Assembly: GCA_034780895.1 (NCBI GenBank)
Contig: JAUZTB010000042.1
Coordinates: 20,220,558-20,284,557, forward strand
Length of the DNA stretch: 64,000 bases
Direction of reading: 5' to 3'
Source: Rhynchobatus australiae
Lineage: Eukaryota
Shown: one piece after another, positions 23,593-53,462 of the stretch
How the letters are laid out: each line of letters opens with the position of its first letter
How positions within the stretch are numbered: the first letter of the stretch is position 1
Notes under the pieces: model-generated
Databases searched by the model: none
Told to the model about the DNA's origin: nothing
The model's input: the letters and a program-made list of their open reading frames with translations, nothing else
Made by a program: the position numbers and the translations under genes

Positions 23593-23688
23593 TTAGTGGG
23601 TCAAGCAAATTTGCACATATTTGAAGATTGGTGTGGTGGCTCTGTTGATCAGCTCAGGAAAAATATTCACTTCCCCCTCTTCCCACAT
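23593..23688 (+). CDS. B4GALNT3: B4GALNT3-like exon (human exon 4 equivalent; start of PA14 region)
   Basis: ttgtacag|...|gtgagt, 96 nt, phase 0-0. [32 protein letters not shown] matches the NLHVFEDWCG...HFPL(F/Y)PH motif of B4GALNT3/4. Confidence 0.95.
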
Positions 23689-28167: not shown

Positions 28168-28268
28168 GTGCATTTCAATTTGCCGTGGCTTCCGATGATA
28201 ATTCTGAGTTTTGGTTAAGTGCAGATGACAACCCTTCAAATGTCACACTATTGGCGAGAGTTGGAAAG
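28168..28268 (+). CDS. B4GALNT3: B4GALNT3-like exon (human exon 6 equivalent; PA14 domain)
   Basis: gtttcag|...|gtatga, 101 nt, phase 1-0. [33 protein letters not shown] contains the PA14 SDD motif. Confidence 0.95.
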
Positions 28269-30899
28269 GTATGATTTTGGCTCATGCTCCTAGGCCTAAA
28301 TTAAATGCTTGTTTAACCCAAGACACAATGATATTGAACTGTTTCCTTTTGGTCCTAATCGTATTTAGTCAGCTTCCTAATGGAAGCAACAAGCTAGCAC
28401 GCATCGGGGAGTAATAATCATGCTCAGTTCATTGGTCTGTCATTGGAACTGGAGAAATAAATTCAACTGGTGAGAAGTGGGATTGTTAAGGAAAACAGTG
28501 AGTATCAGTGGGGCCTGTGTCCATTTAAGCTGGTGGAAGTCCTTGAGTAATTTTTGCTCAGACCTTGTTATCATCATTAGAATGACCAGCCAGGGTGAAC
28601 CCTCTTGCTGCCGGGTTTAATGCTGAAATGTGCTCCTCACTTCATAAGAGTAATTGACAGCAATTAGAAGCATTCCACATAGGCCAATACTACAGCAGAA
28701 AATGCAAGATCTTGTGGAACTTGTAATTATTATTGTGTTCCTTGATTAGCAAATACATCTCTAGAGGCACTGATGGGCAATATGGAAAGGAAAAGAGATG
28801 TTCTTTACTCTCATCGATGGGTGGAAGCTTTCTAGCATTGTGGTTGAATGCCCTTAGCTTTAGTACTACTGCTATTTAGCCATTGTAGGCATGAGGGGTG
28901 CAGTTATGGGTCTTGGGATCACAATTTACTAACCTCTCTCAGAACTCGTACCTCTGCAAATCCATTAGCTGTTAGTCAAAAACTGCTGCCATTTATGGAA
29001 AGAAGATGTAATCCAAATTCTCATCCTTGAGCAGTTCAGAGTCCTGCATCATGGCCATCTACAACCACTGAAGGCCAACAGCCTCAGTTAACTACTTGGA
29101 GCTGCTGGGAGAGCATTGTGCAGGAGCATTAGTAAATGCAAAGGTGCACAAAAAAAATTAATGGAAAGCTCAAGAATGATTAGTCTATGTTGCTGTAATC
29201 AGTGTTTCTTCAGGTTCTTTAAATGTATAGAATTATAGAAGAAGTATGGAAAGTCGGTGGTGTAGGGTAATAATCTGTGATTTGAGATCCAGGAAGAATG
29301 ATGATGAGTTGCAGAGAGAGGGCAAAAGAGACCAGCAGTAGAAATGGACCATTCAGAGAGAACATTCATTGGAATCACAGCCAAATTAGCTGGTTATAGG
29401 TCCCTGTAAAGGACTTGCTACTGAGTAGCCAAGATTTGCACCTTGCCACAACTTCAACAGTCTCCAACAAACCTGTGTGTAATTGTGAATCACCTTAACT
29501 AAAGTTGAGGGAATCCTTCTGCTGCTGGACAGCCAGGTTTCCTGTCCATAGTTAATACTGTGTGGATGGATGAAGACCAGCTTGGCAGGATAGATGTCAA
29601 AGCAGCATTGCACAAGGATTGGCATCACCTGCTGCCCACACTCCATACTTTCACCGTGAAGGGTGTACATGTTACACACATAATCATGCACTTTCTGATT
29701 TAATGGATGAATTAAGTGTGAAAAACAAACTCTGTGTGCTCAAAATTTTGCAGCATTTTGCTGCCCAGATCAAGGGAACAAAATAGTGAGAGAAAGCCCA
29801 ATTTCTTCACCTTTGGCTCTGTACATAATGCCTCCTGTAGTATTTAGTTTGCTGTGCGACGAAAGTGATAGCAAAGCTGCACACAGGAAAATATTGACAG
29901 GAAACTTGATTTTCAACAACATATGGTAAAGTAAGTATAGCCCTCTAGCAGGCAGACAAATTATAAACCAGTTACAACATTTAATTGCTGTGGTAAGATA
30001 ATGATATAGCAATATAAACATAAAAGTTCAACGCCAACCTCATGTCTAGTCAGAAATAGCAAGTAATGATGTTAATGAATTATGGAATTCTTTTGAAGTT
30101 AATGAAATATCTTTAATTGATGTTGGAGCAGCAGGGGCATTGGTGTAGGAGCCATGGTGAGAAGGGCACAAGGGATAGAAGCAAATGTAGATTGTGAAGT
30201 CCTGCAACCTAGCCTACTGCTTAGTAAGAATAGGAGCACCGTCAGATCAGGACATTATTGAAACTAATCCGGCATAAAGAAAAGCATACTCAGTTAAACA
30301 CACATAGCAAAATCTAAAGAGATTTTCCACATTGTGAGGTTGGGAATTTTGTTTTGGCCCTTGTTATGCATTGTGGGTCAAAGGGCCTGTACTGNNNNNN
30401 NNNNNNNNNNNNNNNNNNNNNNNNNNNNNNNNNNNNNNNNNNNNNNNNNNNNNNNNNNNNNNNNNNNNNNNNNNNNNNNNNNNNNNNNNNNNNNTCCACA
30501 GTCTGCACATCCTTCCTATAATAGGGCGACCAGAATTGAATGCAATACTACATATGCGGCATAAGCACTTGGTGTAATTATTGTCCATTTTAGCTTATCC
30601 TGAAAAAATAATAGGGTTTGATCTATGCTAGCAGAAGGCAGGCATTAACGTGGATTAATACAGAGAGGCGTGCGCCAATTTTATTTTTAACACCAGTAAG
30701 ATGTAAAAGCAACACTATTATTTCGCAGAAATCTTTGTCCACATAGTCCCTTAAAAAAGGAAAAAAGCTTTGGGGTAATGGGGAGATATTTATAATTTAT
30801 TTTTCAATGTTACACAGACATTGCAATTTAAGTTTACATTTTAGATTTAAAACAACAATTTGTTTAAAGCCAAGCTGTAGGTCTGTGAATGTATATTTT

Positions 30900-31024
30900 T
30901 CAGTCCGGGTTCACAGACTGTCAGCCGTTGCCGGGGCAGCTTTCAGCGTGGACGTGGCTTGGGACAGCCTCTCGTTGCTGACGTCGGAAAGCGAGTGGCG
31001 GAAGCGGCCGTTGCAAGCGGAGCA
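30900..31024 (+). promoter_or_regulatory. CpG-rich promoter-like region upstream of the nested exon 1
   Basis: Local cluster of CpGs in an otherwise CpG-depleted background. CRE-like TGACGTC at 30979-30985 and ETS-like CGGAAG at 30999-31004, immediately before an ATG and a strong donor site. Confidence 0.6.
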
Positions 31025-31099
31025 ATGAGAGGAGTGTCGAAAAGGAGGCAGAATCTGCCGCCGCCGCCGCCAAGTCAAATCCCGAAACCCACAGAGCAG
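31025..31099 (+). CDS. Putative first coding exon of a second, non-B4GALNT gene
   Basis: gcaATGa start with G at -3; 25 codons MRGVSKRRQNLPPPPPSQIPKPTEQ; consensus donor CAG|gtaaat in phase 0; lies within a CpG cluster. Confidence 0.65.
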
Positions 31100-31479
31100 G
31101 TAAATGTACGGAAGCAGAGTGTCAGCAAGGCCAGGCACTGTGTAAAGCCCTGATGTTGAACTGCCCTTGGTGGTTCTTCTGTAAACCGTCCAATAGCAAC
31201 TCGCACTGGCGCCAGACACTCTCCTACATGCGCCTAGAGCAAGGGTATTGGTGGGCATGGTACAATTCTTTAGAACTCTCCAGTTTGAGTTGCTCAGTAA
31301 CTTTAGGTGTTGTATGGAAAGTACCACCAAGATTGCATTTCTTCTGCCCTGATTGCGCCTGGATTTTGACCACGTGAGATTACGACCCACCTCCTGTCCG
31401 TAATTGTTTGGAAACCCTGTGAGTTCGTTGCAGAGTTATTCCACGATGAAAATCAAAGCAGCTCTCACTGCCACAACAA

Positions 31480-31715
31480 AAGTATTGCATTCAATTCTGG
31501 TCGCCCTATTATAGGAAGGATGTGCAGACTGTGGAAAGGGTGCAGAAGAGGTTTACCAGGATCCTGTCTGGATTAGAGGGTGTGAGCTATAAAGAAAGGT
31601 TGGACCAACTTGGGTTGTTCTCCCTGGAGTGTCAGAGGCTGAAGAGAGACCTGATAGAGGTTTTTAAGACAATGAGAAGCATAGATAGGGTAGACAGTCA
31701 GAATCTTTTTCCCTG
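31480..31715 (+). mobile_element. CR1 3' fragment
   Basis: VERVQKRFTRILSGLEGVSYKERLDQLGLFSLECQRLKRDLIEVFK. Confidence 0.85.
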
Positions 31716-32374
31716 AAAGTTGAGTTATTGACGATGCTAAAAGCAATGTTTCTAAATGTAGTTTCTGCACAACTGAAGTTTTGACAGTACACAGCAAATG
31801 TATTTTTATCATGTAAAAGCTTAAATTCTTAAAGTGCTTGACGGATTAAATTCAGGGAGGGTGACTGAGGATCAGGGGCCACAGTTTGGGAATAAGAAAG
31901 AAGCTGTTTGGGACCGATATGGGGAGAGGACGTTGAGTCTTTGCAGTACTTAATTCTGGAGGGAGGTGGACGCTAGAGGTTTTGTCAATCTTTTAAACAC
32001 ATCAAGAGATATATATGGACATCAAGGGAAAAGTGCTAGGAAGTGCAAGTGAGATAGATCGGCCTTGATCTTAATGGTGGAGCAGGCTCAAAAGGGCTGG
32101 ATGGCTGACTCCCTTTTCTTCTGAGACCATGCTGCTGCTGAAGCCCAAGTGATGTATTCAAACTGTTGGACCTGCTGAACAGAGGATGTTCAATACTGTA
32201 CACCACAGGCCTACCTGACTGAAATGTGGCAAGATGTCATATGATGAACTTTGCTGTATTATGCACAGCCACTTGTTTCTGTTTCACTCTTCCCCATGTG
32301 CCCTCCAACTCCTCTCCCTGTCACCAACCCCTGCCCCCAGATTGTATTGCTGTGTTGTTCGAGTGCCAGCTGTC

Positions 32375-33082
32375 AGCCATAGCACAGAAACAGGCCCTTT
32401 GGCCCAACTCATCCATGCCAAGCGAGATGCCTGCCAGAGTTAGTCCCATTTGCTTGCACTTGACCCATAAGCCTTTCTTATCTATGTACCTGTCCAAATG
32501 TCTTTCAAATATTACAATTGCACATGCCTCTACAATTTCCTTTGGCAGCTTGTTTCACATCCTCACGACCCTTTGTGTGGAAAAACTTGCCCCTCATTTC
32601 CCCTTTAAATCTTTCACCTCTCACCTTAAACCTATGCCTCTAGTTTGGAATTTCCCCACCCTGGGAAAAAGACTGTGACAATCTATCTTATATCTATGCT
32701 TCTCACGATTTTAGAAACCTCTTTAATGTCACCCCTCAGCTTCCTTCACTCCATGAAAATTAATCTCAGCCTATCCACTCTCTCCTCATGAGTCAAGACC
32801 TTCAGTCTTGGCAACATTTTTGAGAATCTGTTCTTCATTCTTTTCAGTTTAATTACATCCGTGCTATAGCATGGTGACCAAAACTGCACACAATAGTCCT
32901 AGTGCGTTCTCACCAAAGTTTTGTACAGCTGTAACATGACATCCCAATGTTTGAACTCAGTGCTCCAACTGAGGAAGGCAAGCGTGCCGCATGTCTTCTT
33001 CATTACTCTGGCTAAATATGTTGCAACTTTCAGGGCACTACGTACTTGTACCCCTCAGTCTCTCTGTTCTACAACACTCCCA
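32375..33082 (-). mobile_element. CR1 3' fragment with 3' UTR
   Basis: Reverse-complement CR1 3' end (acagaaacaggccctttggcccaac...ctgggaaaaagact...ggtgaccaaaactgcacacaata). Confidence 0.8.
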
Positions 33083-34374
33083 GGCGGAGTGTTATAGACT
33101 TTTTAGGTGGCTATAAAATGTCTTTCAGCACTATTTAAGGAATATTTCCTTTTTAACCAACACCATCAACAGCATATTAATGGATGTTACATTGCTGTTC
33201 ATTAGAATGTGCTATGTCTGATGCTTCTAAAATACAAATAATCTTCATGTAGTGATTTATTGGAAGTAATATGTATTGCAACTTCCTACAGCCATTTGAA
33301 GGCAAACATAAATGTTATTCACTTAGTTAAAACATTATAGCTGTACAACACAGAACCAGGTCGTTTGGCCCACCTAATCAAAACTGACGGTCAAATTCCC
33401 ATTTACACAAATCCCATTTTATTCTTTCCACATTCCCATCAAATATGCAGATTTTACCAGGGACAATTTACTATGATCAACCCTCATGCCTTTGAGATGT
33501 GAGAGGGAACTGGAGAACCCAAGTGGAATCCACAGGGAGAAGATGCAAACTTCACACAGACATTACTGGAAGACAGGACTGAACTCAAGTCATTAGAGCT
33601 GAGAGGCAGCAGCTCTACTAGCTGTGCAACTGAGCCACCCCAGCAAGGGTACTGAACTCTTTAATGCAAAATTGATCCTTGAAACACAGTCATCAACTAA
33701 AGTTGTAGAGGGCCAACTGAGCCTCTGATTAACTTTGTGATATTGATGGATTCAGCACATCTGCTAGCCATAATCAGGTCAACTTGAGGTAGATTGTACA
33801 CACACTTTCTGGAAAAATAATGAAACACTTAACAAGTGAGGGAATAATGTTCAGTTATAGTGCAGCAGTAAATGGGTGGTTTCAGATAAGTTGCCCATCG
33901 CTGTTCCTGCCTGATTTTTCTTTCCAATAGTTCCTGCTGATACTACTAAAATGAAGGAAAACCATTCAGCTCCTCAAGCTTATTCTGCCACCTTTTAATT
34001 CATGGATGTTTATGACTTCATTATCCTCTTTTGTAAATAAAAATTAAAAGAGCAGATCAAGTAGGAATATTGAAAATTGTAGCCAGTGATAATTTGGCTA
34101 ATAAGTTCTGTTCAATACTTTAATAATGAATCTCTGCAGGGAGATTTCAGTTCCTATTCTGCCTGCTTTGTATAAGTGTTTCACAGACAAGCACTGGAAG
34201 ACTGGATGGAGAGGAGGTAAAGCAATGTGTTTTGTATTCCCATTGCATTTTGTTTTATCATTGCTAGTATGTAGACAGTTTTATATCGTATAAAACTGTC
34301 CACATTTTGGATGGTTATCCCGTATCTAATGTTGTTTTGTCACGCTTTTGTTTACTTGTCTCTTCCTTCTCCAG

Positions 34375-34549
34375 AAAACCAATGCACCACAAGTTTGTTC
34401 CACAGAAACCAACACAGATTCTTTTTCACTGTTGAAAATCTGTTCTCGCCTCATCTCAGTTTTAAAGTATCTTCTTCTAATCCTTATGATTCCACCATTC
34501 CTAAATTATGCATCCCTGCAGAGAGAAGGAGCATTACTTCAGCCTCAAG
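34375..34549 (+). CDS. Putative second coding exon of the nested gene; TM segment, resembles the N-terminus of an uncharacterised fish alpha/beta-hydrolase
   Basis: Branch-like CTAAT, long pyrimidine tract, ccag| acceptor in phase 0 matching 31099, donor AAG|gtgaga in phase 1. KTNAPQVCSTETNTDSFSLLKICSRLISVLKYLLLILMIPPFLNYASLQREGALLQPQ. The PPFLNYASLQREG motif recalls, from memory only, zebrafish si:dkey-122a22.2-like proteins. Confidence 0.7.
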
Positions 34550-37500
34550 GTGAGATATTATGTATTCATCCACATATAATACAATATAATATTGGTTATA
34601 CATACAATAAAATTTTATTTTGCCATGGATGATAAAAAAAAGAATTTCCAACAGTAAGGGAGAATTTTGTGGGCAGGGCCCCAACAAGTCTTGTGGTTCA
34701 GCACAAGATCTTGGGGACAGCACAGGCCCAGTGTAATCATGGACGTTGCATGAAATGATACTGAATTAATAAAACATGGAGAATATAAAACAGGATCTGC
34801 CAGTTACCTGTTCCTGAAATCTGACTGTCAAACTGTAAAGCAACACTCCAGGGTATTCAGTAAACAATACATAAAAGCTAGCTGTTTGTTTTTATCTCAA
34901 AAAGCACACCAATCTCAAAGGGCACACATTTTCCGCTTTTTCAAGTCAGGAAGTTGGATGTATTTCTTCCTTGTCCACCCTCGAAAACCACTGTCCATCA
35001 CAGCATCAGCTTTGACTGAGAATTTTCACCTACACATATCTGTCTCTAGAATCTGGGAGGGAGCACAGCGCAGGGACAGTAATTCACAGAAATTTACAGT
35101 CCACTGCACCTGAACCAACTCTTTAACAGAGCTGTTTGAAATTGTTACCAGTGCCAACAGGAGAACTGCCCAGGCTCCTGACACCCTACCGGCCCGGGGC
35201 AGGAGGCTGCTCCTCGGTCCAATTTTACCTGCGACCCAGGGATGGGGAAGGCAGCAGGGGGAATGGAGCCTTTAACTCAAATCTTTGCCACGCCCATCAA
35301 AGGATTTGTCCAGATCATCAGAGCTAACTGGGTGATGACATCACTCACTGGGCACTCCTTCTAAGGAGGCGTGGCTGTTCTGGGGTTCCTGCTGCCCACC
35401 CTTCTGAACCCGAAATATCAAGTCCTGATCCAGGGTCTCAACCTGATACTCAGCATTCACAGATGCTGCCTGACCTGCTAGGTTCCTCCAGCAGTTTTGT
35501 TTGGTTTTTGCTCCAAACTTCCCCTGTTGATTTTAATCAGAAAATTGAATTCACATTTCAATCTCATACACAATAGACAATGCTCCTTTCAGATATATGG
35601 AATGGTTGGCAATCTATTCATGAAGGCACTATTTAATTTCATCTTTTATTTTCCTACCAGATTCAAACCTTTAGCTGAACCAGGCAGGAGAGATTGAGTA
35701 ATAAATAGCTAAAATAAAATCTTTCTCACATCACAAAAATAAGTATTATCCAGAGTTTTCTCCACTGATGTATAGGAAAGAATATCAGGACAACTTGATC
35801 TGAAAAATATCAAAATGTCACACCTTTGTTCAACAAACTAAGTCTCTTTTAAATAGGAAATGTCACTAATATGTTGTCAACTGGTAACGTCCTTGGGAAC
35901 TGTCAATTTAGCCAGCATAAAGTGAGTACTTAAGAAGCAGATGGATGAGCCCTTGATTGGCTGTGATCTACACAGTTATATCAAGAGCTGCAAAGGGGGT
36001 GTGTCTCAATAGCTCTTTTGTGGCTGGCACAGACACAATGGACAAATGATCTTGTTCTGTTCCAGACATTTGTGTTCTTTGACCAGGACCAGAAATGAAA
36101 AGAGAATGTTGAAAAGAATATACTGAATTGGAAAATGCCAGTTAGCTCATTGAACAGTATTCACTCAGACACTCCAGGTATTGAGGTAGATGCATCACAA
36201 GGCCAGGAGGCAGTACATCAGCTCCAATCCTTGTCCGCCCAGGAGATAATGGTCAGTCTGAACCCCAGTCTTTCCCATCTTTGCGACTTATCCTGCAACA
36301 TTCCTACTGAACTAAAATCTAACAGGCTTGAAAACTTCAATTGCCTCAGCACTCATTTGATCATTACCAACAGAAAGGGACAGAGACTGAGACACACAGA
36401 TGTTAAAATTTTGCTAACGTAATATACATTAGACTAATATCTTACTAATGAGGACAGTCAATTATAAGAAGAGAGTCCCTCCATTAATATTATAGGTGGC
36501 ACTGGTTAATCACAATAATTACTGGAACAGATGGTGTGTAATTAACAACAAGCTTCTAGGATATGAAGCATCACTCTGCACTGGGTATTCAAGTGTTAAT
36601 ACTAGAAATTTACATGCAGTGTAAGCTACCTGCTGATATTATTATTATAGAATAATGATTGTTGTTCATGATTATTAATTCCAAATAATACTTTTTAATC
36701 ATCTTTAAAAAAAAATTCCAAAAGAACTGTGTGTTAGCTGCATTCAGAGAATATGGGAATTGAAACTGTGAGACAAGTTTCTTAGAGGAGTCTCTGATCA
36801 CTGTCCATTGTGTTATCAAAGTTTTAAGAATGTATGCAATATTGAATGTAACACCCTGGATGGCAGTCACTGTAGCATTTACTATGTGAACAGTGGGCAC
36901 TCCCAAAACCCTACCCAACATGGCAGGAAAATGGTTGCTATTTTGGAAAAAAAACAAAGTTGCACAACAGGACCCATCATAATCTGACCCATTTAAAGTA
37001 CTTTGCAAATTGAGAAACACATTCAAGAACTGGTGAGGAGTTGGTGCATTAAGTTGGTAGCTATTACAGACACTGGATTTGTAAGGGAAAGTTGTAAATG
37101 CTGGGCATGTACTACTGGAGGAAAACTTTGTTAGTTTTCAAGTATTCAAGAATCTAAATTTTAGCTAACATTAATGTGTAGAAAAATCATCAAATCATTA
37201 GCAATATTATCGTGCATTTATTTAATTGAGAACAACACTTAATTTATACTAAGCAATCTAAACGCAGTTTTTCCCCATCCCTTTTCCTCTCCTCCTCAAC
37301 AATTCTCTTCTCAGCAAATAATTCCACCCTTTCTCCTCATGATTATTCTCATCCACATCACCTTGCGCCCCTCTGGTGGTTCTTGGTCATGGAGTCCTCT
37401 CATAAATAGGATATGGGATGAAGAAATGAGGCAGCTGGAAATAATTTTGCTGTTTAATGGAAGTAGAAGAGAAATTGAAAAACGTTAGAGAAGATGTGAA

Positions 37501-37911
37501 ACAATAAAGCTTCAATAAGGAACATGCAATAAGTAATGAACGGAATTGGAACAAAATGGAATGAGCTAAAAAGATGTATTATCTAACTTCTAACAGTGTA
37601 TTTGTATGGATGTCAGCTATGCCCCAATGAGGTAATGATCTTTTTGTTTTAAAGAAAATGTTGGAATTTGCACATGGCTGTTTGTGTGAAGAATATCCTA
37701 GCACTCACCTCAAATTGACTCTTAGGTTGCAGTAGAGGTGAAACGAACTCCATGTTGTGCCTTACTAAAAAAAAATTAGGAATCAATCGCCATCTGACTT
37801 TCAAGCAATTAATGTACTATGTGCTGCTCAGAACAGATAAATGATTGAAGGTGTTTTTGTGTTTGTTTTGTGGTTATAGTGTCAATGTTCTTTTCTATTT
37901 ACTTTTTGCAG

Positions 37912-37990
37912 GTTGTCATCCTCCAGGAAATACTACTTTGAGGTACTCCATAAGCAAAATAGCCAGGGAACAGATCATGTAGAAGTTGCT
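37912..37990 (+). CDS. B4GALNT3: B4GALNT3-like exon (human exon 8 equivalent; PA14 domain)
   Basis: tttttgcag|...|gtaagt, 79 nt, phase 2-0. [26 protein letters not shown] closely matches B4GALNT3 [20 protein letters not shown]. Confidence 0.95.
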
Positions 37991-39900
37991 GTAAGTTTTT
38001 GTTGTTTAACCATTATCATAATGCCAGAAAAATTTTTTTGCAATAGCTTTCTTATTATATGCATAAGTAATGCATTAAACAACTATAAAAGTATTTAATT
38101 TGAAGCTTTTATGATCTGGTTGAGATTGTATAGTGATAAACAGTTCATGGGTCCATTCCTTTATAAAGAGGATTGTAGAATCTTTCTTTCAACTCTGGTA
38201 TTTTTCAGAGGCTGACCCCCAATTTATTGATATTCAGTAGTTCACATGAATGGTCAATGTATGGGTATTTATGCTGGGAGTTCATCAATTAATTGTCACT
38301 TGCTGTCTGACTATTGGGCTTTCCGTTGGTATGGGTTATCCTGTTCTTGTTCTTTTGTCTGATCGGTGTTGAGAGGGGGAGGTTATCCTCTTTTTTTCCC
38401 TATCTGTTAGTTTCTTGGGGTGGTGGTTCTTTTTGCCATATATTTAGCTGATGATTGTGCTTTTTGTGAGTGTGTATTGAGCTAATTATAATGGGAAAGA
38501 GTTGCTGTTCTCATCAGTCCTTAAGATGGTTCATGGTTCCTTACATTTCTGCTTTTCTCATCACCTGTTTATAGAATTGTTAGGGATACTTAGTTATGGA
38601 GAAAGGCTTTCCTGAGCATTAAAACTGGTATTTTCTGCTTTGTAGCAGGTTATGGGTTGATATTGTGCTTCCTGCATTACATTTATTCAGAATCCCACAG
38701 CAGTCACATGTTAAAATTGTCATCCCACTCTTCAAATGCATTAATGGCCTTTTCTCTTCTGTCTTTAATCTCCTTACAACCTCCAAGATCTCATCTTTCC
38801 TCATTTTTAGCCTCTTGCAGATTGCTGTTTGTATTCCCTCCATCATCTGGGCTTTCAATTGCTTGGGTTCAGGAATTCTCTCCTTAAACCTCTCTGCTTC
38901 TGTCCCTCCCTATGAACGCAGAAGAAGGAGGAGGCCATTCACTGACCCAAACCTGCTCTGGCATTGAATAAGATTACTGTTTTATGATGCTCTTTAAAAA
39001 TCCACAACTTTGGCTAAGGCTTTGGTCTTTTATCCTAATACCTTGATGTTTTAGTATGGCTTGGTGTCAAAGTTTAAGTATAATTATGAAGCATCCTGGA
39101 ACCTTTTGCTATGTTAGGGATATAATTAAATTGCCAGTGGTTGAATTTTAAAGTTTGAGATTTTTCAGCTACAGGATATGTCATCAGTGATCTATATCCT
39201 GGTTTCTGAGAATACTTGATATCGTCAAAAGCTTTAGCTTATGCCAGGGATTTGATGGTGAACTTTTCAAACTTTTGGATGTGTTGGCTCTGCAAGTATT
39301 TTATCCCTTGTCCTGGCACAGAGACAATATTATCTCTAAACTGGCACCTGAGAACTTGGATAGCAAAAGTGTTAGAACAGTATAGATATTTGTCCCTTTT
39401 GGCCAATTAATAGAATGTTCTTATGCAAGTTATCCCTTTTGTTCAAGCCTGGGATATCTTTAGAAGCAGGAGGAGATTATTTGTCTCTATTACCTGCTCA
39501 CTGTTCAATTAAGGCCATTGGAAACATCAATTCCATATCCCCCTATTAAGCTCCTTATGAATCTTGTATTTTTAAGTGAGTTCGTATCTTGAGAGTGCAA
39601 GCTTAGTCTGCTCGACCTGTCCTTGTATGATAAAGCCACCATCCCCGAGATCAATCTGCTGAAAGATCAAAGGTCTCATGAAAATAGCAGTTTTAACAAA
39701 TCCCAAAGTTCTGGATTATATTGCAGTACTTTAAGATCCATAATTTTGCAGACCCTTTCAATCTTTCTCTGCTAAGGCAGGCAAATTAGGGGGGGGATTG
39801 ATTGGCAGTTCTGCTTCTGAATTTGCACTGTGCGTCACTATGCAAAATTCAGTATGGTTGAAAATATTCATTTATTTTTCTGACCTGGCATGGAGTCCCT

Positions 39901-40046
39901 GTGTTTTCTGTGGGTACCCTATTGTAGGCAGTGAGTGTTTCTGTGGGTACCCTATTGTAGGCAGTGAGTGTTTCTGTGGGTACCCTATTGTAGGCAGTGA
40001 GTGTTTTTTGTGGGTGCCCTATTACAGGCAGTGAGTGTTTTCTGTG
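39901..40046 (+). repeat. Minisatellite, 33-bp unit, about 4.4 copies
   Basis: GTGTTTCTGTGGGTACCCTATTGTAGGCAGTGA repeated head-to-tail with no spacers. Confidence 0.95.
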
Positions 40047-40679
40047 ATGACAATAGAGTGGGACAGGGAATTCAACGTCTGGTTCCCTCATTGTCTTCAT
40101 TCAGAATTTGTTTGAACTGTAGAGATAATCCCCAAGGATAGAGTTGGGATTTGTGCTGCCTTGATTCAGAGCAGGCATCAGACAGTCTGACTTTGTTGAG
40201 CATCTTGGGACTTGTACTTGTCCCACATAGGCAGGCTCTTATGCTGGAGCTTTTCATCGGGTCTGAGGAAAGTCACTGCATTCATTGCGAACAACAATCA
40301 CTGTTTGTTTAGTTCGGGTGTATCTCAAATGCTGAAAGGTCATCTGAATACCAGTGAAGCAGCCATTTGTGCACATGGTTCATTTGAATAGGGATTCCCT
40401 GGATCTTCAGACCAGTGTCTTTCAGCACTGAGACTTACCCCTTAAGTCCGAGACATCAAGTGCTCTTGCCCATGCTGACACCACAGGAACGATATTGACA
40501 ATAAAAACAGAAAATACCAGAAACACTTGGCATGCCAGGCAGCATCTGTGGAAAAATAAGCAGAGTTAATGTTTCTTGGAATTTTGAGCAAAGACATAAC
40601 CTTGGATATTGCCGGAGAAATAAGAAGCCAAAGTTGCATTTGTTACTGATGTAATCACCACTCTTTTTCTCTCCCTCAG

Positions 40680-40746
40680 TGGCGACTCCACAATACTGGC
40701 CTTAAATTCAACATTGTTGATTCTCAGTATATTTCACTTTATATCA
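40680..40746 (+). CDS. B4GALNT3: B4GALNT3-like exon (human exon 9 equivalent)
   Basis: ctccctcag|...|gtaagt, 67 nt, phase 0-1. WRLHNTGLKFNIVDSQYISLYI. Confidence 0.93.
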
Positions 40747-41357
40747 GTAAGTTATGCACCTCATTTATATTTGCTATATTTTAGTATTATTATAAATTGG
40801 AACTACTAAACAGTGCTAGGAATGATAAGAATAAAAGCAAATGACATATAAATGACAGTAACCTCACAGTATGTCCTATGTCTGTAGAAACAATTTGTAA
40901 TTGTTTTTGTACACCTCCGAACAACCAGCCATTAAACTCCACTTCTGAAATTCGGCTCCATTGAAATTGCCCAAACAACAAAGATGAATTCCTACCCTGT
41001 GATAGTTTTTTTAGTTTTATACAAAAAGTAGCGGTTTAAAATACAAATATGAATTGAAACATATTATTGTATTGAAGCTTTTTGATTTGTTTTTAGAGTG
41101 CATGGATTGTGTTTCCTTATTTTAATGTTCACTCTTGATATTAAACTGTCCTATCTTGCCTTTACAGCATTAAAATTATTCGGAAATTTAGCTTAATTTG
41201 AACAAATAGTTACATTTAAGTTACTGCTATTAGTGCACTATTTAGTCCATTTCTAATAAAAAGAAAACTATTTAGGGTTATCTCATCCATTTCTAATATT
41301 TAAATAGGAATTGTTCTGCACAGCTTTTAAAATAAAATGCTTCTCTTTCCATTTCAG

Positions 41358-41501
41358 ATGAGTCGTTAATAAAACTGAATGAAGTACAACACATTCCACA
41401 GTCTGCAGCAAGCTACAAAAAGAATTACCGTTACTTGCGTTCACAAAACGAGCATCCAGCAGAAATGCTGAAACATGACCCTCGTGACAGTTTTTTTCAT
41501 T
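41358..41501 (+). CDS. B4GALNT3: B4GALNT3-like exon (human exon 10 equivalent)
   Basis: atttcag|...|gtaagg, 144 nt, phase 1-1. ESLIKLNEVQHIPQSAASYKKNYRYLRSQNEHPAEMLKHDPRDSFFH contains the HIPQ.AAS and ML..DPRD motifs. Confidence 0.93.
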
Positions 41502-44500
41502 GTAAGGCTTCTCCACAAGTATTGCTGCTAAGACAGACACATACCTGCATGAATAAACAATGCATTTGATGTTGTCATGAAAAAAATGAAGTCTGGTTGG
41601 AACCATTGAGATGTTTTTTTTATTAGTAGGCTGTCAAAATGATGGCAGTATTTAGGCATGCGCTGTAAAGGAGGCTTACACCCTTCATAATCTTTGCAAT
41701 TTCCCCAATCATTGAGGGCTTTCACTATTTTATACAAAAGTAAATGTTCACTAATATTTCAGTTGTCTTAATAAGCTAACCCAGCTGAAGTCCAGCATGT
41801 TAGTACCAATCAAAATGGTAGTATTTCTCATAAAGGCATAGTCATTTTATCTATCGCAATACATCTTGAAATTTGTATATTGTCACTTCCTATCATTCAA
41901 CCATAATACTATGCCAGTTTTAATTAGGGCTGTGGCTGTGTCAGTTGCAGCAGGTCAGATCTCTCTATACCTTCCTTCAGTGGGGCATCTCACATTTAGA
42001 AAAGTTGTAATGAATGTGGAACGTGGATAAAGGCTTTCATAGGCTAAAGCAATAAAGTGCACTGCCATTGTGAAAAGTGTTGTAACAAGCCATTGTAGTT
42101 GGCAAGGAAATAGAGACGTGCCTTTGTTGTTGTGGTGGTAGTGTGCCCTCGTGTTGAAATAAGATGATTCAATTAGTGCAATTCTTCAATCAGACTGATT
42201 TATTATACACCTATGGTTTCAATACTTAGTAATAATCAAAGATCCCCTTTGCTTAGGCTTTTTTTGAGGTACTAGATAAGGTTGCCCTTTAAGTCCTTTA
42301 TTATTTGATATTGCTTTGGAACCCTTGGCTATTGTACTCTGGGATTCTTCAAACATATGCGGTATTACTCAATTAGTGCAATTCTTGATTAATTGCACGT
42401 TTGCAGCCAGATGATGACATGTTTACAGTGCATTTTTGTGTCCCTCCATAGCTTGGATGGGACAGTTTAGTTTCATTTTTTTCTTCTACTTCTAAGGAAT
42501 ACAATTCCAAGGACATTTGTTGTCCAAGTTATCTTGATCAAGTGGCATTTATTCCTTCCTGAATTTGGTCATTAAGACCAGAAGATTGTTCACCGATAAG
42601 GTACATCGCACCTTTTTCCAATCCAGTCCTTGTCAGATGCTCGCATGTGTGTGATTTCCAACAAACATAATTAAATTGTGATGTGGAGTGCAAAAAGATC
42701 CACTTTACACTTGCACCTGTACCAAACATGAAGGTGGAATCATCAAGATTTTGTTTCACATGATTACACTTGCAATCTGTAAATTTAAATTCATCTCTCC
42801 AGTAAAAATAAGCATAATTTCTGCATAATTAGGCTCCAGTGACAGAAACAGGTCATTCCAGTTTTTTTATATTCTAAACAAGTCATCAACATCTTCAGAA
42901 CATGTTAAAGCATGCTTATATAAGCAGAGACAAACCTCCACATAAATACGTGGAAGTATCTGNNNNGCTTTGGTCAAATGGTCGATTTGTACGTTCACTA
43001 AATAGCTTAGTTCATGTGGTGCTAAAATATGCCTAAATTGGGGGTTGTTCATGTTAAATGCAAATTAACTTGTTTTTGTGATTTCTCATTTTAAAATGAT
43101 GGCCTTTTATAAACATTTTAATCATCTAATGTTGATATTATGTTTTCTAAAATTATTCATTATTGCTAAAACTGGTTAAGGCAAACCCACTTGTCATAGA
43201 GTTATGCTGCACAGTACTGGGCTCTTTGACCCAGCACGTCCATGCTGACATTTTTGCCCTTCTACACTGATCCTATAGGCCAGATGAAGTCTGTATTCTT
43301 TCATGCCTCGTCTGTTTAAGTGCCTTTCTAATTGCCTGCCTGTATTTCATATTCTCACCAAAAAAAAATCACCTATTGGAAAACATTGGTCTTTGTTTGT
43401 GATATTTGTGCTTGAGTGAGATTGATGCCATTACCAAACTGCAACTTATTAATCATCCAGTTGTCTTAAGTTATTGCATATGTATTATAAACTACAAATG
43501 AATTCCACTTGAGTTTAAAGCATAGTTAGACTGTGTTCCATTAACTCTTTTCTAAATGGCTTAAATTTTTAATCTTTGTCAAAGCCCTTATGTGCTACAA
43601 TTAAGTATGTGGATTTCTATTATTAAAAGAAGAAATGAACATTTGGTTAAATTCAGTTAAGATTTTATCAGGACTTGCACATGAATAAGATCATAATTCT
43701 TATTTCGGCAGGGAATAGCATGATCTTGTTGTATAACATCTCTCTCACCAGTTTTTATTAATGCACCATAGANNNNNNNNNNNNNNNNNNNNNNNNNNNN
43801 NNNNNNNNNNNNNNNNNNNNNNNNNNNNNNNNNNNNNNNNNNNNNNNNNNNNNNNNNNNNNNNNNNNNNNNNNNNNNNNNNNNNNNNNNNNNNNNNNNNN
43901 NNNNNNNNNNNNNNNNNNNNNNNNNNNNNNNNNNNNNNNNNNNNNNNNNNNNNNNNNNNNNNNNNNNNNNNNNNNNNNNNNNNNNNNNNNNNNNNNNNNN
44001 NNNNNNNNNNNNNNNNNNNNNNNNNNNNNNNNNNNNNNNNNNNNNNNNNNNNNNNNNNNNNNNNNNNNNNNNNNNNNNNNNNNNNNNNNNNNNNNNNNNN
44101 NNNNNNNNNNNNNNNNNNNNNNNNNNNNNNNNNNNNNNNNNNNNNNNNNNNNNNNNNNNNNNNNNNNNNNNNNNNNNNNNNNNNNNNNNNNNNNNNNNNN
44201 NNNNNNNNNNNNNNNNNNNNNNNNNNNNNNNNNNNNNNNNNNNNNNNNNNNNNNNNNAAAAATATAATTTTACATACATTAAACATGGAAACAGACATCC
44301 TGACGTCAATCTCATTTTATACATTTATTTGTGCCAATATCTGCATAACCGTCAAATGTAAGAACAAACACATAAAAATAGGATCCGGTATGGGCTGTGT
44401 GGCCCTTTTGTGCCTGCTCCACTATTCATCAAGATCATGGCTGATCCCCTACCTCAGCACTGTTTTCTTGCCCAACCCCCATATCCCTCAATTCCCTTAA

Positions 44501-47500
44501 TGTTTGAAATCTTTCAATCTCTGTTTTGAATGAGCTCAGTGTCTGAGCTTCTACAGCCCTTCAGGGTAGAATTGAATTCCAAAAATTCACCATTTGAATG
44601 AAGGAACTTCTCATCTGAGGCCTGTGGATCTTTTTGCATGATTAACTGATGCCTCTTTTTTTGACATTATAGAATATGGAATTCAATGGTAAAGTCAACA
44701 TTTATAGTTTATCACTAATTTTCCTTGAGAAGTTGGTTGGGAGTTGTCTTTCTGAGCTACTGCAAACCAGGTGGTGAAGTTTGTCCCACAGTGCTATTAA
44801 CGTGGAGTATCAGGATATTAAGGTGGTTATGGAGTTGTGACCATATATTTCCACGTCAGGACAGTGTGCCACTTGCAAGGGTTCTTTGAGGCAGTCGAGT
44901 TCCCATTTGGTAATCCACTTACTAGATAGTGAAAATTGTGAGTTTGAGAGGGGATGTTAAGAAGCTGTGATAATTTGAAAGGAATACAATCAGCATGCCT
45001 CCTTGTTGCTAGTTATTTGCTCGTTATTTGTTGCCTACTATGTGATGTCCACCAGCACCAACCAAGCTGTAGTTTAGCTGAAAACATCATCAGAGGCCCA
45101 ATAGCAGCAGTTAAAACCAGCAAACTTCTTAAAGAAGAGAAGAATTGTGATTGAAGCTGCTTGCAGCAAGTATCCTGCTGCTAAGCTGAGCTAGGAAACA
45201 ATGAAGAATAGCATAACACAGCAGAAAGAGGCTTCCATGAATTTAAGGCACAACCACTAAAAGCCTTGGTAGAAAGATGGAGTGTTAGATGAAGGTGCTG
45301 TATCTGTTAGGAGCCTTCTTGATGCACACATGAAAGGCCATCAAAGCAGATTGCTCAGGGGAATATGGGAGCAATACAGTCCCAAGAATCTTGGTACTGA
45401 GCTACAAGGTGATCAAAGACTTCACACAAATGGAGATCTGCGAATCCATAACCTGATGGCATAGATTTAAGAAAAGGAGCAAGAGTTTTGGTGGGGATAT
45501 ATAAAGAATTTTTTCACTCAGGGTGGTTGGAATTTGAGAGTGGTGGAGGCAGGGACTTTCTGAGCATTTCACAAGCACCTGAATCACCAAGCTATAGAAG
45601 GCTGTGGATCAAGTGCTGGAAAATGGGATTAGTATAGACGGGTACCCGATGGTTGGCATGGACAGAGTGGCTGAAGACCCTGGTTCTGTGCTGTATGATT
45701 CCATGACTAAGCCTTACACTCGTAGTGCATGGCAGACACTTGCTACCATCTATTCAGTCCGGAAGGGAACATCACTAAAACAGATTGCACTTCATTCACA
45801 AGACTAAATTGTGTTCTCCTGCAATATTAGCTTGGGGAGGGGGTACAACCTGATGTGGTGGGAGCTAACAGCATGGAAGTGGTCTACCCACATGTGCTAA
45901 CATCAATCAAAAAGATTATGCTGGTCGTTATTGGAAATTGTATTACTAAGGCTGTGGACAGTGGCAGGGCTGAAATCAGCAACAATAATATCCTCATGCT
46001 TAATCCTCCTCCTCATACATCCAACTCCCCTTTCGCCTATTCAATTTTCTGATATTTTTTTTTCTTCTTCCCAAACCAAAACCTTTTCCCTGTGTTTCCT
46101 TCATTTCCAATCCCAAAATCTACAACCTTGCTGGGCAGGCACAAAAGGAAGAAAAACTAGAGTGACGAGGACACCCTGTCATTTGATTTCACGCCCTCGA
46201 CCACCAACTCGGATACTGTGCTATTTAGCAGAAAGCATTTCACTGGGATCTGCATGAGTGACCTGTAGCAGAGTAGATGGCAAAGGTAATGCAGATACCA
46301 GCTTGCCAGAGTGGCAAGGTCACATGTCAGTTCTGCTCCTGAATCCTTTGATATGCACTTTGGGGAGTTTTCTGAAAAAGGAGGACAGCTAGGTATGGAC
46401 AATAAAATGCTTGATGCATCGGAAAGCCTGCCAGAAAGTCTGTGTTCCCTGTCAAAGAGCATGAAGGAGATTAGCACCACTTTGCACAGGGTTTTGTATT
46501 GAGCTTGGACCCTTATCCTTTCTAGAAATGTGGCCAATGTTGTGAGCATGCTTATGGATTTAATCATAACATGGCATCTAATGACTGATATCAAAGTTTC
46601 CATTGCAACACAGTCTCAGTGCCACAGTTGCAGTTACGCAATGTCAGACAGCTACAATCAAGACTCTATCACAATGTGCAAAGGTTGTCTTTGTAGTCCA
46701 GCTTTCTCCCCCACAACATGTTACACAGATTGCTGAGTTGCTGCCCTCTCTTGGGAAAACTGTTTTGTTCCTCTCCTCTGCTCTTCCAATGTCCTTCCTG
46801 TCAATGTTGCCATCCCAGATTAATGTTATCCACATTAAAGTAGTGCAGTCCAAATTAGGCCTTTTGTATTCCTAGCTACTTGATGTTACCTCCAAGTCCT
46901 TGTGCTGCCTGCTGCACTGAAAGTCAGCACCCTTCACCACCCACACTGTAGAGAATGGGGTACCTGTTTGCTGGATTAAAGGCTATGCCCAAAACATTGC
47001 ACAACGTGCAGCCCCAGTGATTCTTGCCACCTGCCTTTGAATACTGTAGGCTTCTGCTGGAGAAGTCCAGCTAGCACAAGCAGTGTCTCTGCGCTTCTGT
47101 CACAGTTAGTGTGTTACCACTTCTTTCATTGTTCACCAGTGCAAGCAGATGCCCATTTTACCAAGTATCCTACCTTTGATTTTCTCTGGTGATTCATATG
47201 CAGTTGGCACAGTGGATTGTCAAAGAGGCACAATGTTGAACTGTCTGACTCTGTCATATCTTACAACAGCATGGAGGTTGGCACACTGAAGCTAGGATTT
47301 AATTTCCATGAGAGCTGAGTAGTAGCAGTCGCTNNNNNNNNNNNNNNNNNNNNNNNNNNNNNNNNNNNNNNNNNNNNNNNNNNNNNNNNNNNNNNNNNNN
47401 NNNNNNNNNNNNNNNNNNNNNNNNNNAACAACTTTTGCAAGTCATTCTGACTATTTCAGTCCTGGTCAACACTCCAATGGACTACTAAGAGAATTTTTCA

Positions 47501-49819
47501 AATGAGACATTAAACCAAGGTCCTATCTAATCTCTTAGATGGAGCATAAAAATTCTGAAGTATTAAAGAGCAGGGGAATAACTTTTGTTGTCCTGGTCAG
47601 TATTCATCCTTCAATTAACAACAATAATACAGATAATCTAATCATCTCACATTGCTGTTTATGAGTACTTGCTGTTCTGAAAATGGCAGCTGTGATTTTT
47701 ATATTACCACAGTAACTGTGCCTAGAAAAGCTAATTTATTAGCTTTAAAAACAGGGATGTCCTGAGATTGTGTCTGTGTCCTGCTGAAATCAGTATGACC
47801 AGACCCATCTCAGTGACAGATATTGAAGCTCTGCAGGAGTGCATGGTTCCTTTGCTTCTCTTAGTGCTTCCACCAAATGAAGGAGATCTTTCTCGTCAAG
47901 TGAAGGAGGACTGGTTTGACCTGATGTATGACACTTACTGTGGTCTGCCGAGGAGTTGTGTCAGTCTCTCCCTCTCAACTAGTATTATGCCGCCTCTACT
48001 TATAGGTCAATCCTACAAATGTGACAATTCATAAACCAGAGCCGGTGATAGCGAAGTTGGGTTGTTGGCTTAATGGGTACGATTTTATGAATGCAACTGT
48101 ATTATTTAATTAGTCCATGGGGTGGCTGTCCCATTTTTGGTACAAGATTAGCAAGCTGAACTTTGCGGGATCAACAGGAATGTGTCTTTGTCAGGGTTAT
48201 ACCTTGGTCAATGCAAAGTGATCCTTCCAGCTTTATTTTGTAACTGTTATATGCAACTGCCAAGACATTTGAGAGTTATCACATTGCTCTGGGATTGAAG
48301 TTATATAATGGCCATTCTGGGTAAGGATGTTGCCTTTTTGTTTCTCAACTGAAATCAAAATCACCATCTGCCATGGTGACACAGGAACTTGCAACAGATT
48401 AATAGATGTGGGCTTTGGATTATAATCAACTAATGTGGCCACTATAAAATTGATGCANNNNNNNNNNNNNNNNNNNNNNNNNNNNNNNNNNNCCCAGAGG
48501 TGCTACTTGACCTGCTGAGTTCCTTCAGAACATTGTTTTTAACCATGTCAGATGCTGATAATGTTAGTCATGTTTATAAATGCCATCACATCACTGTTCC
48601 ATTCACCTACCTCTCCACTGTTCCTTTCACTCTGTCAATGACATTCATAACTCCCATGCTTTTCTTACAACCACTTGAGCCACCCTCTGGTGATGAGAAG
48701 GGGTTTTTATTTGAATGTTCCTGTAAAAAAAAATCAACAGTCAGTAGGACCCTCTGGTGCTTCTTGTACTGTGCAGCACTTTTACAGAACTAAAGATGAC
48801 TCCATATTTGGCCCATTCAAATACTCCTCTTCAGTGAAAATTGGAAAGTTAGCACCACTGGCATTAGGGCTTTGCAGGGTGCAGGCCCACTGTGGTGGTT
48901 TAGGTATTGTTTGCATTCAAGACTAACAGTCTGAATGTTAAAGGAATCAAAGGATATGGGGGTAGTGCAGGAAAACTATGCTGAGCTAGAAGATCAAACA
49001 CGATTTTATTGAATGCAGAGCAGGCTCAAGGAGCAGAGTGCCCATATCTTGCTTCTGTTTCTTATGTTCTTATGCTTTTTATTTTAGCATTTCAAGGAGA
49101 AATTATAGCTTGTACACAGGAAATAGAAAGAAAGAAAAATATGTATGTATATAAAATCTGCTTTAAAATGCCATTTGATATATTGACCAGGACTCCAGGG
49201 TAGCTCTCATGCTCCTAGCTGAAATATTATCATGGGATCTTTTATAAGCATCTGAAAGAGCAGTTGGCATTATAGCTTAATTTCTCACCTGAATAATGGC
49301 GCCTCTGATAACGCAGATCTCCCCTACCACTGCACTAAGTTACTGACCTTTCTCTTTTGGAGGCAAATGTACTTCCACTACTTGGTGTTCTGTGGGAATT
49401 TTTTTGTCCATCTGCACCAGGTAAAACGGCTAGGTTTGGCACTCTGTAGGATAGTAAACATGAAAGGCTCATTTTTGGCCAATTACTTGAGAATCCAAGA
49501 AAGGAGAAAGGAAATTAGGACAAGAGTTTGTGCGTGATAAGTTCAGGTAAAATTTTGAGTACTCGCGGACTATCTGGTATGTAAATTTTGTAATAGCAGT
49601 AACGTTGAACAGCAAGCTGTTATGGCAGGCTGTTGATCAATTTGGAGATGTAGTGCATTACTCCTCTGGTCAAACACCCTTGCAAATGATGTGGTTATAT
49701 AGCCACAGACCTCAACAACTAGTGTTATGAACTTTGTCACTCAAGAATCCAGACTATATCTGCGCCAAGATCAAGAAAATCCTCTTGACATCTTTTAAAA
49801 GACTCACCTCATGTAGATA

Positions 49820-50280
49820 AGAACATAAAAAAAACCCATAGAGCCTGCTCCTCCATTCAATAAGGTCATGGCTGATCTGGCCACGGACTCAGATCCACCT
49901 ACCTGCCTTTTCCTCATAACCCTTAATTCCCCTACTATGCAAAAATCTATCTAACTGTGACTTAAATATATTTAATGAGTTCGCCTCTACTGCTTCCCTG
50001 GGCAGAGAATTCCATAGATTCACTACTCTTTGGGAAANNNNNNNNNNNNNNNNNNNNNNNNNNNNNNNNNNNNNNNNNNNNNNNNNNNNNNNNNNNNNNN
50101 NNNNNNNNNNNNNNNNNNNNNNNNNNNNNNNNNNNNNATATATTTAATGAGTTCGCCTCTACTGCTTCCCTGGGCAGAGAATTCCATAGATTCACTACTC
50201 TTTGGGAAAATCAGTTCCTCCTCACCTCCATCCTAAATCTACTCCCGTGAATCTTGAAGCCATGTCCCCTAGTTCTAGAG
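49820..50280 (-). mobile_element. CR1 3' end (contains a gap-flanking duplication)
   Basis: Minus-strand NLWNSLPREAVEANSLNIFK motif. Confidence 0.8.
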
Positions 50281-51809
50281 TCTTGGCAGAGATGGCTATC
50301 TAAAAGAACAGTGATAATTAATTCCCTACTAAATGTTAATCTCTAACATTTGTGGGGTACTTTTTCAGGGTCAGTAAAGATGACCAAATCTTTTTCCAAA
50401 GGTGAAATTATCTCTGTTGTATTTCTTTTTGAGAAGGTGTGTCATGTTGAGGATAAATAGCTTTGTATCTCAGCTAAGAGAGCAAAACCACCAAGAGAAT
50501 TTCACAGAAAAATATTGTCATCGCAAGCTACTGTTTAAAGTATCAAAATTCTAGCAAATTCTTGCTAAAATGGAATCTGGAGTTGAAAATTCCATTGTCA
50601 GTCTACCCATCTGCTTCAAAGTCTGGCACAACACAGCAGTTACTAAATTTGAGGAAGCAACTGGCCTTACTGGTTTAATGCTCAGTTTTGTTTTTGAAAT
50701 GTGATCCAAGAAACCAGCTGCTTCTCTGACTCACTCCAGTTCTTCAGTGAAATGCATAAACATCATACTTTAAGAAATCAAAGTTATGTCCCAGTTACTA
50801 CATAATTTCTTCATCTGCCAACTCTAGAAGAAGAAAATTGTTGGAGCATCTTTAGAGAAAATGAGTCACAGCTTGATGCTTTTACTCATGTGGTGCAGAA
50901 ATGAAATGATTCCATAGATGCTCAGCACAGAGTGGGATAGATCCTTCAGCAGTTTATATCACTCAAGCTTCATTAAGAGATTAGCTTCTCCTGGCACATA
51001 TGACATAAGGGNNNNNNNNNNNNNNNNNNNNNNNNNNNNNNNNNNNNNNNNNNNNNNNNNNNNNNNNNNNNNNNNNNNNNNNNNNNNNNNNNNNNNNNNN
51101 NNNNNNNNNNNATATGACATAAGGGTGAAATAGATAGAAAATGTTATTAGGACATGCAAATAAAACACCATGGTAAACATACCATCATTAGCAGAACACA
51201 ACAGGATTCTCTCATGGAAATGTTTTTGTTCCAAATCTGATATGCTTTTTCAATGTATGTGTTTATATCTAAATCACATTTCTGAAGATTGCAATATTTC
51301 TTGCAGAATTTTTAGTTCCCTCCTGAAAGAATAATAGTTAAAGGCAAAGGCAATCATTTGATGTACTTAGAATTTGAATCACTTACATGCAAATTTTTTT
51401 TGTCCTCTATGCAATTCATTTTAAATGAAAAAATTAATGAAAAAATCGGGGACTCTACACATCACGTAAAGTGTAGTTTTTTTTCTGGGTCTATGGAAGG
51501 GTTTGGGTCCATGGATCTAATACGGGGTGGGGTGGGCATCCTCTATGCCTCAGTCCCCTCTGAGTAGTGACCCTCACCTCATCTTCCAAGCTTGCAAGCT
51601 GCTTCTGATCCTCAGCATTCCCTGAAACAGCCTAAGTCCCCCAGTTATATTGTGCAGTCAACCCTTGCCCTGCTTCCCCATTAACCTGCCATTTGACCAC
51701 GCTGTGGAAATCTCTATTCTTAACCCACTGCCAATCCATGACCCTACTTCTACCCAGTGTCCCAAAAGATGGGGCACATGGATATTGTATTCTTTTATGT
51801 TTCTTCAAT

Positions 51810-52145
51810 ATAGAAAGGTACCATATGTTGGGTCTCAGAACACTTCCATCAGTCCCATCACCCCACTTATTTCCCTGTAATCTGTTCTCTCCCACGTGTC
51901 TATCAACTGCCCCCCCCCCCCACCAACCCCCCAATTCTCCTGCCTTCACTAGGGGCAGCGTACAGTGGTCATTTAACCAAAACAGCTTATCTTGGAATGT
52001 TGGAGGAAACCAGAAAACCCAGAGGAAACCCACCAGGTCACAGGGAAATCCTGCAACCTCCAGGTAGACAGCACCCAAAATCAGGATCAAACCCAAGTTG
52101 GTGAAGCCATGCAGCAGCAGTACTATTGCTGTACAACTGTGCTGC
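51810..52145 (-). mobile_element. HE1/V-SINE-type SINE, near full length
   Basis: ttggaatgttggaggaaaccagaaaacccagaggaaacccac...gtcacaggga...tgcaacctcca..tagacagcaccc. Confidence 0.75.
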
Positions 52146-53069
52146 AAAAAATTGACATCAAATCTAAAATGATATTGAAAACTATAACCCTGCCAAATCC
52201 AAATTCAGAATTAACTCCGACTTGCTGATTTTTGAGAGATTAAACTTGAGTGTTGCTACAAGCCTTTGCATCTCAGAATTATCACGGTCAAATTTATAAA
52301 TCTTTTGTTCTTACTTGCAGTGAACTGTGGCGGCAGCTTATTACTCACTCCCACCTTGTGGCCACAGTGTGTAGTATACCACATCTAAACAGAAAATGCC
52401 AGAAGCTCTCAAAATGTCAGACGGCATCTGTGGAGAGAGAAACAACCTGAAGGTTTCAACCTGAAATGACGACTTTTTCTCTTCATACAGATGCTGCCTA
52501 ATGCGCTGAGTGCCTTTGTCATTTTTGGTTTTATTTCAGATTTCCTGCATCTGTAGTTTTGTTTTAATTTAATTCTGAAATGACAACTTAAGAATACATT
52601 TGTAGAAAAAGACCATTTGGTTCATTATTTATCCAGAACATTGTTATTCTGTGCCTGTTTCATCAAGTAATTTCAGCATTCATTGCCAAATGAGATCAAA
52701 CTTCCTTCAATTAAGCACTGAGAAAGACCAAAGCCATTTTCTTCAGGACCCATCATAAATTCCAATCCATGATCACATTCATGTCATCACACACCCTTCT
52801 TGGTCACCTATCTCAGGCTGAGCAAATTATCTTAAAATATTTTGTTCTAGTTTCCATCCCTTTCCCTGTCCATCTTTTCTGCAGCTTGCTACTCATTCTA
52901 GGTTATAGGGCATCTCCGGGTAACAAACGAGTTCTGTTTTTACAGACATCCATAAATCAATATAGGCCATAAATCAGAAAATACACAAAGTCATTTGATA
53001 TGATAACTATGCCTCCACAGTGTTGTTGAGGGCCAATTAACATGAGCAGTTACTTATTTTCTTCCCCTG

Positions 53070-53462
53070 CCTAGTTACAATGGTACAGAATCAGGATGTC
53101 CCACATTCAATGGCTGGTTTCAGTGGGCGTGAAGTATCAGTGGCTGTTGTATTGTTTAACAGAGTATCATTGGACAAGTATCAATAGAAACTATTGCTTG
53201 TCAATTTCCAAAACAACTCTGTTAAGTGGCATCCCATGGTGAAACTGGCAACCCGTGTTCTAAAGAGACAATGGCGTCAGGTTACTGTGGGGTAGCTGTG
53301 AGTTGCTGGTCCTCAATTGCATTTAATAATGTTTATGGGAGTTGGTTCACATATACCCGGTGTCTACAAGTCATTCATAACCCGGGGAGGGTTAGGAATG
53401 ACTTATAGACTCTACAAATATATAGGCCCTCCCCGCGCGTTCATAACCTGGGGAGGGCCTAT
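53070..53462. mobile_element. Possible Tc1/pogo (Tigger-like) non-autonomous DNA transposon remnant
   Basis: ttcataacc(c/t)ggggagggcct end resembles Tigger-type terminal inverted repeats, and cctagttacaa near 53070 could be the degraded other end. Confidence 0.35.

Follow-up and report, generated by a model that had tools for sequence, protein, structure and literature searches.

Host gene

The window, i.e. the whole 64-kb stretch of Rhynchobatus australiae DNA that was analysed, consists of 18 pieces of 237-13169 bases separated by 17 gaps. B4GALNT3 exons follow one another in order along its + strand between 497 and 63862. Compared with the Pristis protein XP_051885962.1, which has the domains PA14, CHGN and Glyco_transf_7C (PA14, at residues 132-236, being a weak Pfam match), the host gene is represented by 13 ordered exon stretches with 853 of 911 residues identical, and lacks residues 185-207 and 305-340. 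A block of foreign sequence, belonging to the gene si:dkey-122a22.2, sits between the B4GALNT3 exon end at 28268 and the exon start at 37912. The host exons next to the block are as follows (numbering of the initial annotation):

28168..28268, + strand: B4GALNT3 exon 6, the last host exon before the block; identical in all 32 residues to positions 153-184 of Pristis
37912..37990, + strand: B4GALNT3 exon 8, protein match
40680..40746, + strand: B4GALNT3 exon 9, protein match
41358..41501, + strand: B4GALNT3 exon 10, protein match; alone among exons 8-10 in sharing the frame of hydrolase exon 2

Regarding exon 7 (residues 185-207), the best score in six frames across the whole window was 28/126. 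The motif of these residues is present in 19 of 20 B4GALNT3 proteins of relatives (the exception lacks the whole region), and a stop codon arises when exon 6 is joined directly to exon 8; B4GALNT3 sequence is therefore missing from the interval 28268-37912. Residues 305-340 were also absent from the window in the six-frame scan, and the interval in which they are expected (41502-54215) holds 817 N. The draft thus loses exons in gaps, and the loss of exon 7 taken alone is weak evidence for a chimera.

Exon 8 encodes five residues which differ from the Pristis model and agree with other rays and sharks; the mismatch is likely an error on the side of the Pristis record, which is flagged as low quality. 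Several shark B4GALNT3 proteins have about 21 extra residues between those encoded by the exons at 498-604 and 23593-23688, and a candidate exon at 1207-1275 (within 605-23592) is unlike them. A short tandem array of units of about 33 bases (39905-40046) lies in the intron that separates exon 8 from exon 9.

Hydrolase fragment

The part of si:dkey-122a22.2 found in the window consists of three features:

30851..31200, no strand: CpG cluster, likely the si:dkey-122a22.2 promoter, from CpG counts
31025..31099, + strand: si:dkey-122a22.2 coding exon 1; 75 nt, 25 codons; donor CAG/GTAAAT
34375..34549, + strand: si:dkey-122a22.2 exon 2; 175 nt, 58 codons plus 1 base; hydrophobic segment inside

The cluster at 30851-31200 contains 21 CpG, compared with a median of 2 and a 95th percentile of 6 in 1106 gap-free windows of 350 bases, and the top 300-base CpG window of the stretch is 30901-31200, with an observed/expected ratio of 0.84. 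The motifs TGACGTC (at 30979) and CGGAAG (at 30999), which we take to be a CRE and an ETS site, respectively, lie within the cluster, in agreement with the initial annotation, which had reported CRE- and ETS-like motifs in a CpG-rich stretch. A second CpG cluster (1601-2100, with 21 CpG in 1701-2000) lies in intronic sequence of B4GALNT3. It shares a piece with the exon at 498-604, and a 100-N gap follows just after it; no coding match was found near it, and an enhancer, an alternative promoter or a further promoter of foreign origin are all conceivable.

Exon 2 has an acceptor tract with 16 of 17 pyrimidines and the donor AAG/GTGAGA. Joined in frame by canonical splice sites, the two exons encode 83 residues, as the initial annotation had proposed, and their boundaries are supported by the isoforms of the hydrolase in relatives, which diverge precisely at the ends of both exons. 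The fragment contains no stops and no frameshifts, and its splice sites and CpGs are intact.

In a protein search with exon 2, 16 of 59 candidates matched at E<=0.001. All nine matches with a gene symbol were si:dkey-122a22.2 or LOC144679568, the others being uncharacterized, hypothetical or unnamed; the top match was si:dkey-122a22.2 of Pristis pectinata (95%, E 3e-26). Exons 1 and 2 together share 77 of 81 residues with this protein (XP_051879449.1 / XP_051879450.1), and the family named in the initial annotation is thus borne out. Relative to Pristis, the peptide of the window has an extra two-residue proline insertion common to skates. The nearest row to the window in a 13-row tree was Pristis, the pair being without a supported fork; the animal is on this evidence likely to be a ray with sawfishes among its close kin. 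Three of the four substitutions between the two sequences fall on the window side and one on the Pristis side, numbers too small to weigh much.

A single hydrophobic stretch (Kyte-Doolittle 1.92) spans residues 47-65 of the fragment; of the label 'membrane-protein gene' in the initial annotation the hydrophobic segment stands, and the membrane placement is a prediction. A six-frame scan of the 64-kb window gave no match on either strand to hydrolase residues past about 82, as had been noted earlier for further hydrolase exons. The window carries a fragment of the hydrolase gene, not the whole gene, and the Abhydrolase_1 domain is not encoded. It shares the N-terminal 83 residues with Pristis si:dkey-122a22.2 but has exons 1 and 2 only.

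Regarding further foreign exons, none of 23 candidate frames (16 of 17 splice-scored candidates, a nested duplicate having been dropped, plus seven open frames) matched Pfam, a weak test in that Pfam misses exon 2 itself. The frame at 671-901 on the - strand had no matches among 77 candidates, Rfam gave no matches in 28200-43000, and a search of 50%-identity representatives returned 17 weak matches, none of them at 1e-10.

The hydrolase family in relatives

The full si:dkey-122a22.2 protein of Pristis matches Abhydrolase_1 (Pfam PF00561) at residues 104-228, and the full-length protein has a hydrophobic segment near residues 45-63; it is likely a membrane-anchored protein with an alpha/beta-hydrolase fold. 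At the nucleophile elbow, GHSMG of the esterase 7c4d_A corresponds to GSELG in Pristis (E 0.0036, a weak match). All five family members checked, which range from rays to relatives of pike, have GSELG, with Glu at the nucleophile position; the site corresponds to residues 185-191 of the relatives' protein and lies outside what the window encodes. The Ser of the G-x-S-x-G elbow is missing from these proteins, and the family is likely to be without the usual serine nucleophile, which would make its members pseudo-hydrolases or else enzymes with an unusual acid nucleophile. The gene is almost unstudied; a literature search by gene name found only its mention in a gene list (PMC13276642).

Edges of the block

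The edges are described by the following features:

30395..30494, no strand: 100-N gap, left edge of the block; exon 7 (residues 185-207) would lie here or in displaced sequence
30495..30549, - strand: the 55 bases that follow the gap, identical in inverted orientation to 31481-31535, within the LINE fragment
31481..31713, + strand: LINE fragment in hydrolase intron 1; 79% to 10292-10523 and 76% to 9770-9891
34550..37911, no strand: probable right junction interval, where hydrolase intron 2 would give way to B4GALNT3 intron 7; old repeat at 35422-35522

The LINE fragment is presumably of the CR1 type, and the copies at 9770-9891 and 10292-10523 adjoin an RVT_1 frame (9088-9786). The other LINE copies of the window are only 79-85% identical to the 55-mer at 30495-30549. 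Three exact repeats of at least 40 bases occur in the window, two of which adjoin 100-N gaps (one being the left edge of the block), the third being a tandem array. A de Bruijn assembler run with k=55 leaves a contig end on exactly 55 shared bases at an unresolved repeat. A flip of 30550-31480 between the 55-base arms was considered and rejected, the present orientation keeping exon 1 in order with exon 2. Elsewhere in the window, exact duplications of 72 and 14 bases flank 100-N gaps (49966-50209 and 50998-51125, respectively), a pattern typical of unmerged overlapping contig ends.

On the right, the stretch 30495-42962 is one N-free piece which holds both the hydrolase block and B4GALNT3 exons 8-10, and the initial statement that no N-gap separates them is correct. 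The right join consequently lies inside a contig, which counts against a chimeric assembly. The repeat search in 34550-37911 returned only the old repeat at 35422-35522, which is 67-81% identical to other copies in the window. Thirteen sequencing runs were listed as containing words of 30500-40400, one of them more than half of these words and two bearing the same organism label, with no RNA run in the list; the listing weighs neither for nor against a chimera.

An error of scaffolding only, in which the pieces are individually right and the block was dropped into a gap, would account for the 100-N gap at the left edge, and the gap-edge duplications at 50038 and 51012 show that joins in this draft are imperfect; with no gap on the right, and the block and exons 8-10 on a single piece, this explanation retains next to no probability.

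A real and recent duplication, in which B4GALNT3 intron 7 received 4-7 kb of the hydrolase locus (promoter and exons 1-2), agrees with the gap-free continuity from the block to exons 8-10. The parent gene would then be intact elsewhere, exon 7 would merely have been lost in the 100-N gap, as another exon stretch was lost in gaps, and the copy would be a truncated fragment, either silent or with degraded transcripts. Its intactness is no objection, as a very recent duplication would look equally intact, which counts against a chimera; the excess of window-specific substitutions (3 of 4) likewise fits a relaxed copy and leans the same way. Against it, no target-site duplication or terminal repeat of at least 18 bases flanks the block in 29500-38000 (beyond two repeat pairs, and with the left edge hidden by the gap), and the left edge falls exactly at a gap and an exact repeat. 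Together with the expected effect on B4GALNT3 splicing described below, these points make a duplication unlikely.

Gene linkage in sharks and rays

In all nine species with both proteins among the results (species with only one were left out), the hydrolase and B4GALNT3 are on records of different length, and in none of the nine are both on one record. The count covers annotated genes and is silent on unannotated fragments in the intron of relatives. The record lengths are as follows:

Pristis: hydrolase record 102.5 Mb, B4GALNT3 record 50.9 Mb
Narcine: hydrolase record 376.2 Mb, B4GALNT3 record 107.7 Mb
Hemitrygon: hydrolase record 224.8 Mb, B4GALNT3 record 178.4 Mb
Hypanus: hydrolase record 214.8 Mb, B4GALNT3 record 174.5 Mb
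Mobula hypostoma: hydrolase record 256.4 Mb, B4GALNT3 record 152.4 Mb
Leucoraja: hydrolase record 109.6 Mb, B4GALNT3 record 41.6 Mb
Amblyraja: hydrolase record 121.8 Mb, B4GALNT3 record 47.7 Mb
Cetorhinus: hydrolase record 180.0 Mb, B4GALNT3 record 80.6 Mb
Heptranchias: hydrolase record 142.7 Mb, B4GALNT3 record 60.7 Mb

These data bear on a true interleaved same-strand gene, for which the whole hydrolase gene would have moved here, with its intron 2 extending over B4GALNT3 exons 8 onward and exon 3 hidden in a gap or past the window's end. The locus resembles the known class of nested or interleaved same-strand genes in having foreign exons on the same strand in a host intron, and the intact frame, splice sites and CpG cluster speak in its favour; unlike in that class, the inner gene is incomplete, and the two genes are linked in none of the nine relatives. 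Intron 2 would have to exceed 29 kb and contain at least eight strong same-strand exons, and the six-frame scan found nothing past residue ~82. An interleaved gene is very unlikely.

Splicing within B4GALNT3

The acceptor of hydrolase exon 2 (16/17 pyrimidines) equals that of the best host exon among eight acceptors scored. Included between B4GALNT3 exons 6 and 8, exon 2 leads to a stop, and it is also out of phase after exon 7. A fixed insertion would probably be harmful to B4GALNT3, since a strong acceptor on the same strand would break the frame before exon 8; this disruption is the further point against a duplication.

Transcripts from the hydrolase promoter would reach an early stop if spliced to exon 8 or 9; exon 10 alone is in frame. 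A real lineage-specific insertion could on this basis equip B4GALNT3 with an additional CpG promoter and a novel membrane anchor, with hydrolase exons 1-2 spliced to B4GALNT3 exon 10 into a chimeric glycosyltransferase, an outcome we regard as very unlikely. If true, the chimera would keep the stem and the catalytic region and lack PA14 (Pfam 132-236, weak match), and exons 8 and 9 would have to be skipped. B4GALNT3 without PA14 is described as losing most of its activity (PMC11254600), so that the product would be a newly arisen isoform that is inactive or competes.

Interpretation

The presence of the hydrolase promoter and exons 1-2 in a B4GALNT3 intron is best explained by a chimeric assembly (probability roughly 0.8), and the nested arrangement probably does not exist as such. 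In favour of a chimera are the separate records in relatives, the gap and exact repeat at the left edge, the many gaps of the window, the absence of exon 7, and the intact fragment whose strong exon 2 acceptor stands among host exons that are intact. Among the three readings of the initial annotation, the chimeric contig is thus the best supported, the duplicated 5' fragment keeps a small share of the probability, and the interleaved whole gene is very unlikely, with no later exon in the remaining 29 kb and separate records in 9 of 9 species. The intact state of the fragment, and its 77/81 identity to Pristis next to 853/911 for the host, fit what is expected of a working orthologue.

The block would be the 5' end of the animal's own si:dkey-122a22.2, which a short-read assembler probably fused to B4GALNT3 intron 7 in error. 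The crossing from hydrolase intron 2 into B4GALNT3 intron 7 may have run through a shared repeat somewhere in 34550-37911, while on the left the assembly would have halted at an unresolved repeat. In scaffolding, B4GALNT3 exons 8-10 presumably determined where the piece was placed, with a 100-N gap before it, and the true intron with exon 7 is likely to have been displaced by the block. The animal itself would then carry two unremarkable genes at separate loci.

Such a piece resembles the interchromosomal chimeric contig as defined for RaGOO (PMC6816165) in that one contig carries two genes which are on separate records in relatives, with N padding on both sides. It differs in that the chimera is here indicated through protein matches, not DNA alignment to a reference; of its two edges, the left one lies at a gap and a repeat. 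Scaffolding tools guided by a reference use the main alignment of a contig to place it and fill the intervals with N, and the chimera check of RaGOO drops alignments <10 kb (PMC6816165); a block of this size would therefore pass such a filter.

Implications

Supplementary files aside, a literature search returned no report of a hydrolase-in-B4GALNT3 arrangement. If the arrangement is an artefact, it is a warning that even a piece of this draft without gaps can fuse two chromosomes, and both genes would be broken by annotation at this locus. If the insertion is real, it would be a very young capture of a promoter and exons by a glycosyltransferase gene that is conserved, and one splice combination could yield a chimeric protein in frame. 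Promoter-and-exon capture is a known route to new genes, seldom caught so early.
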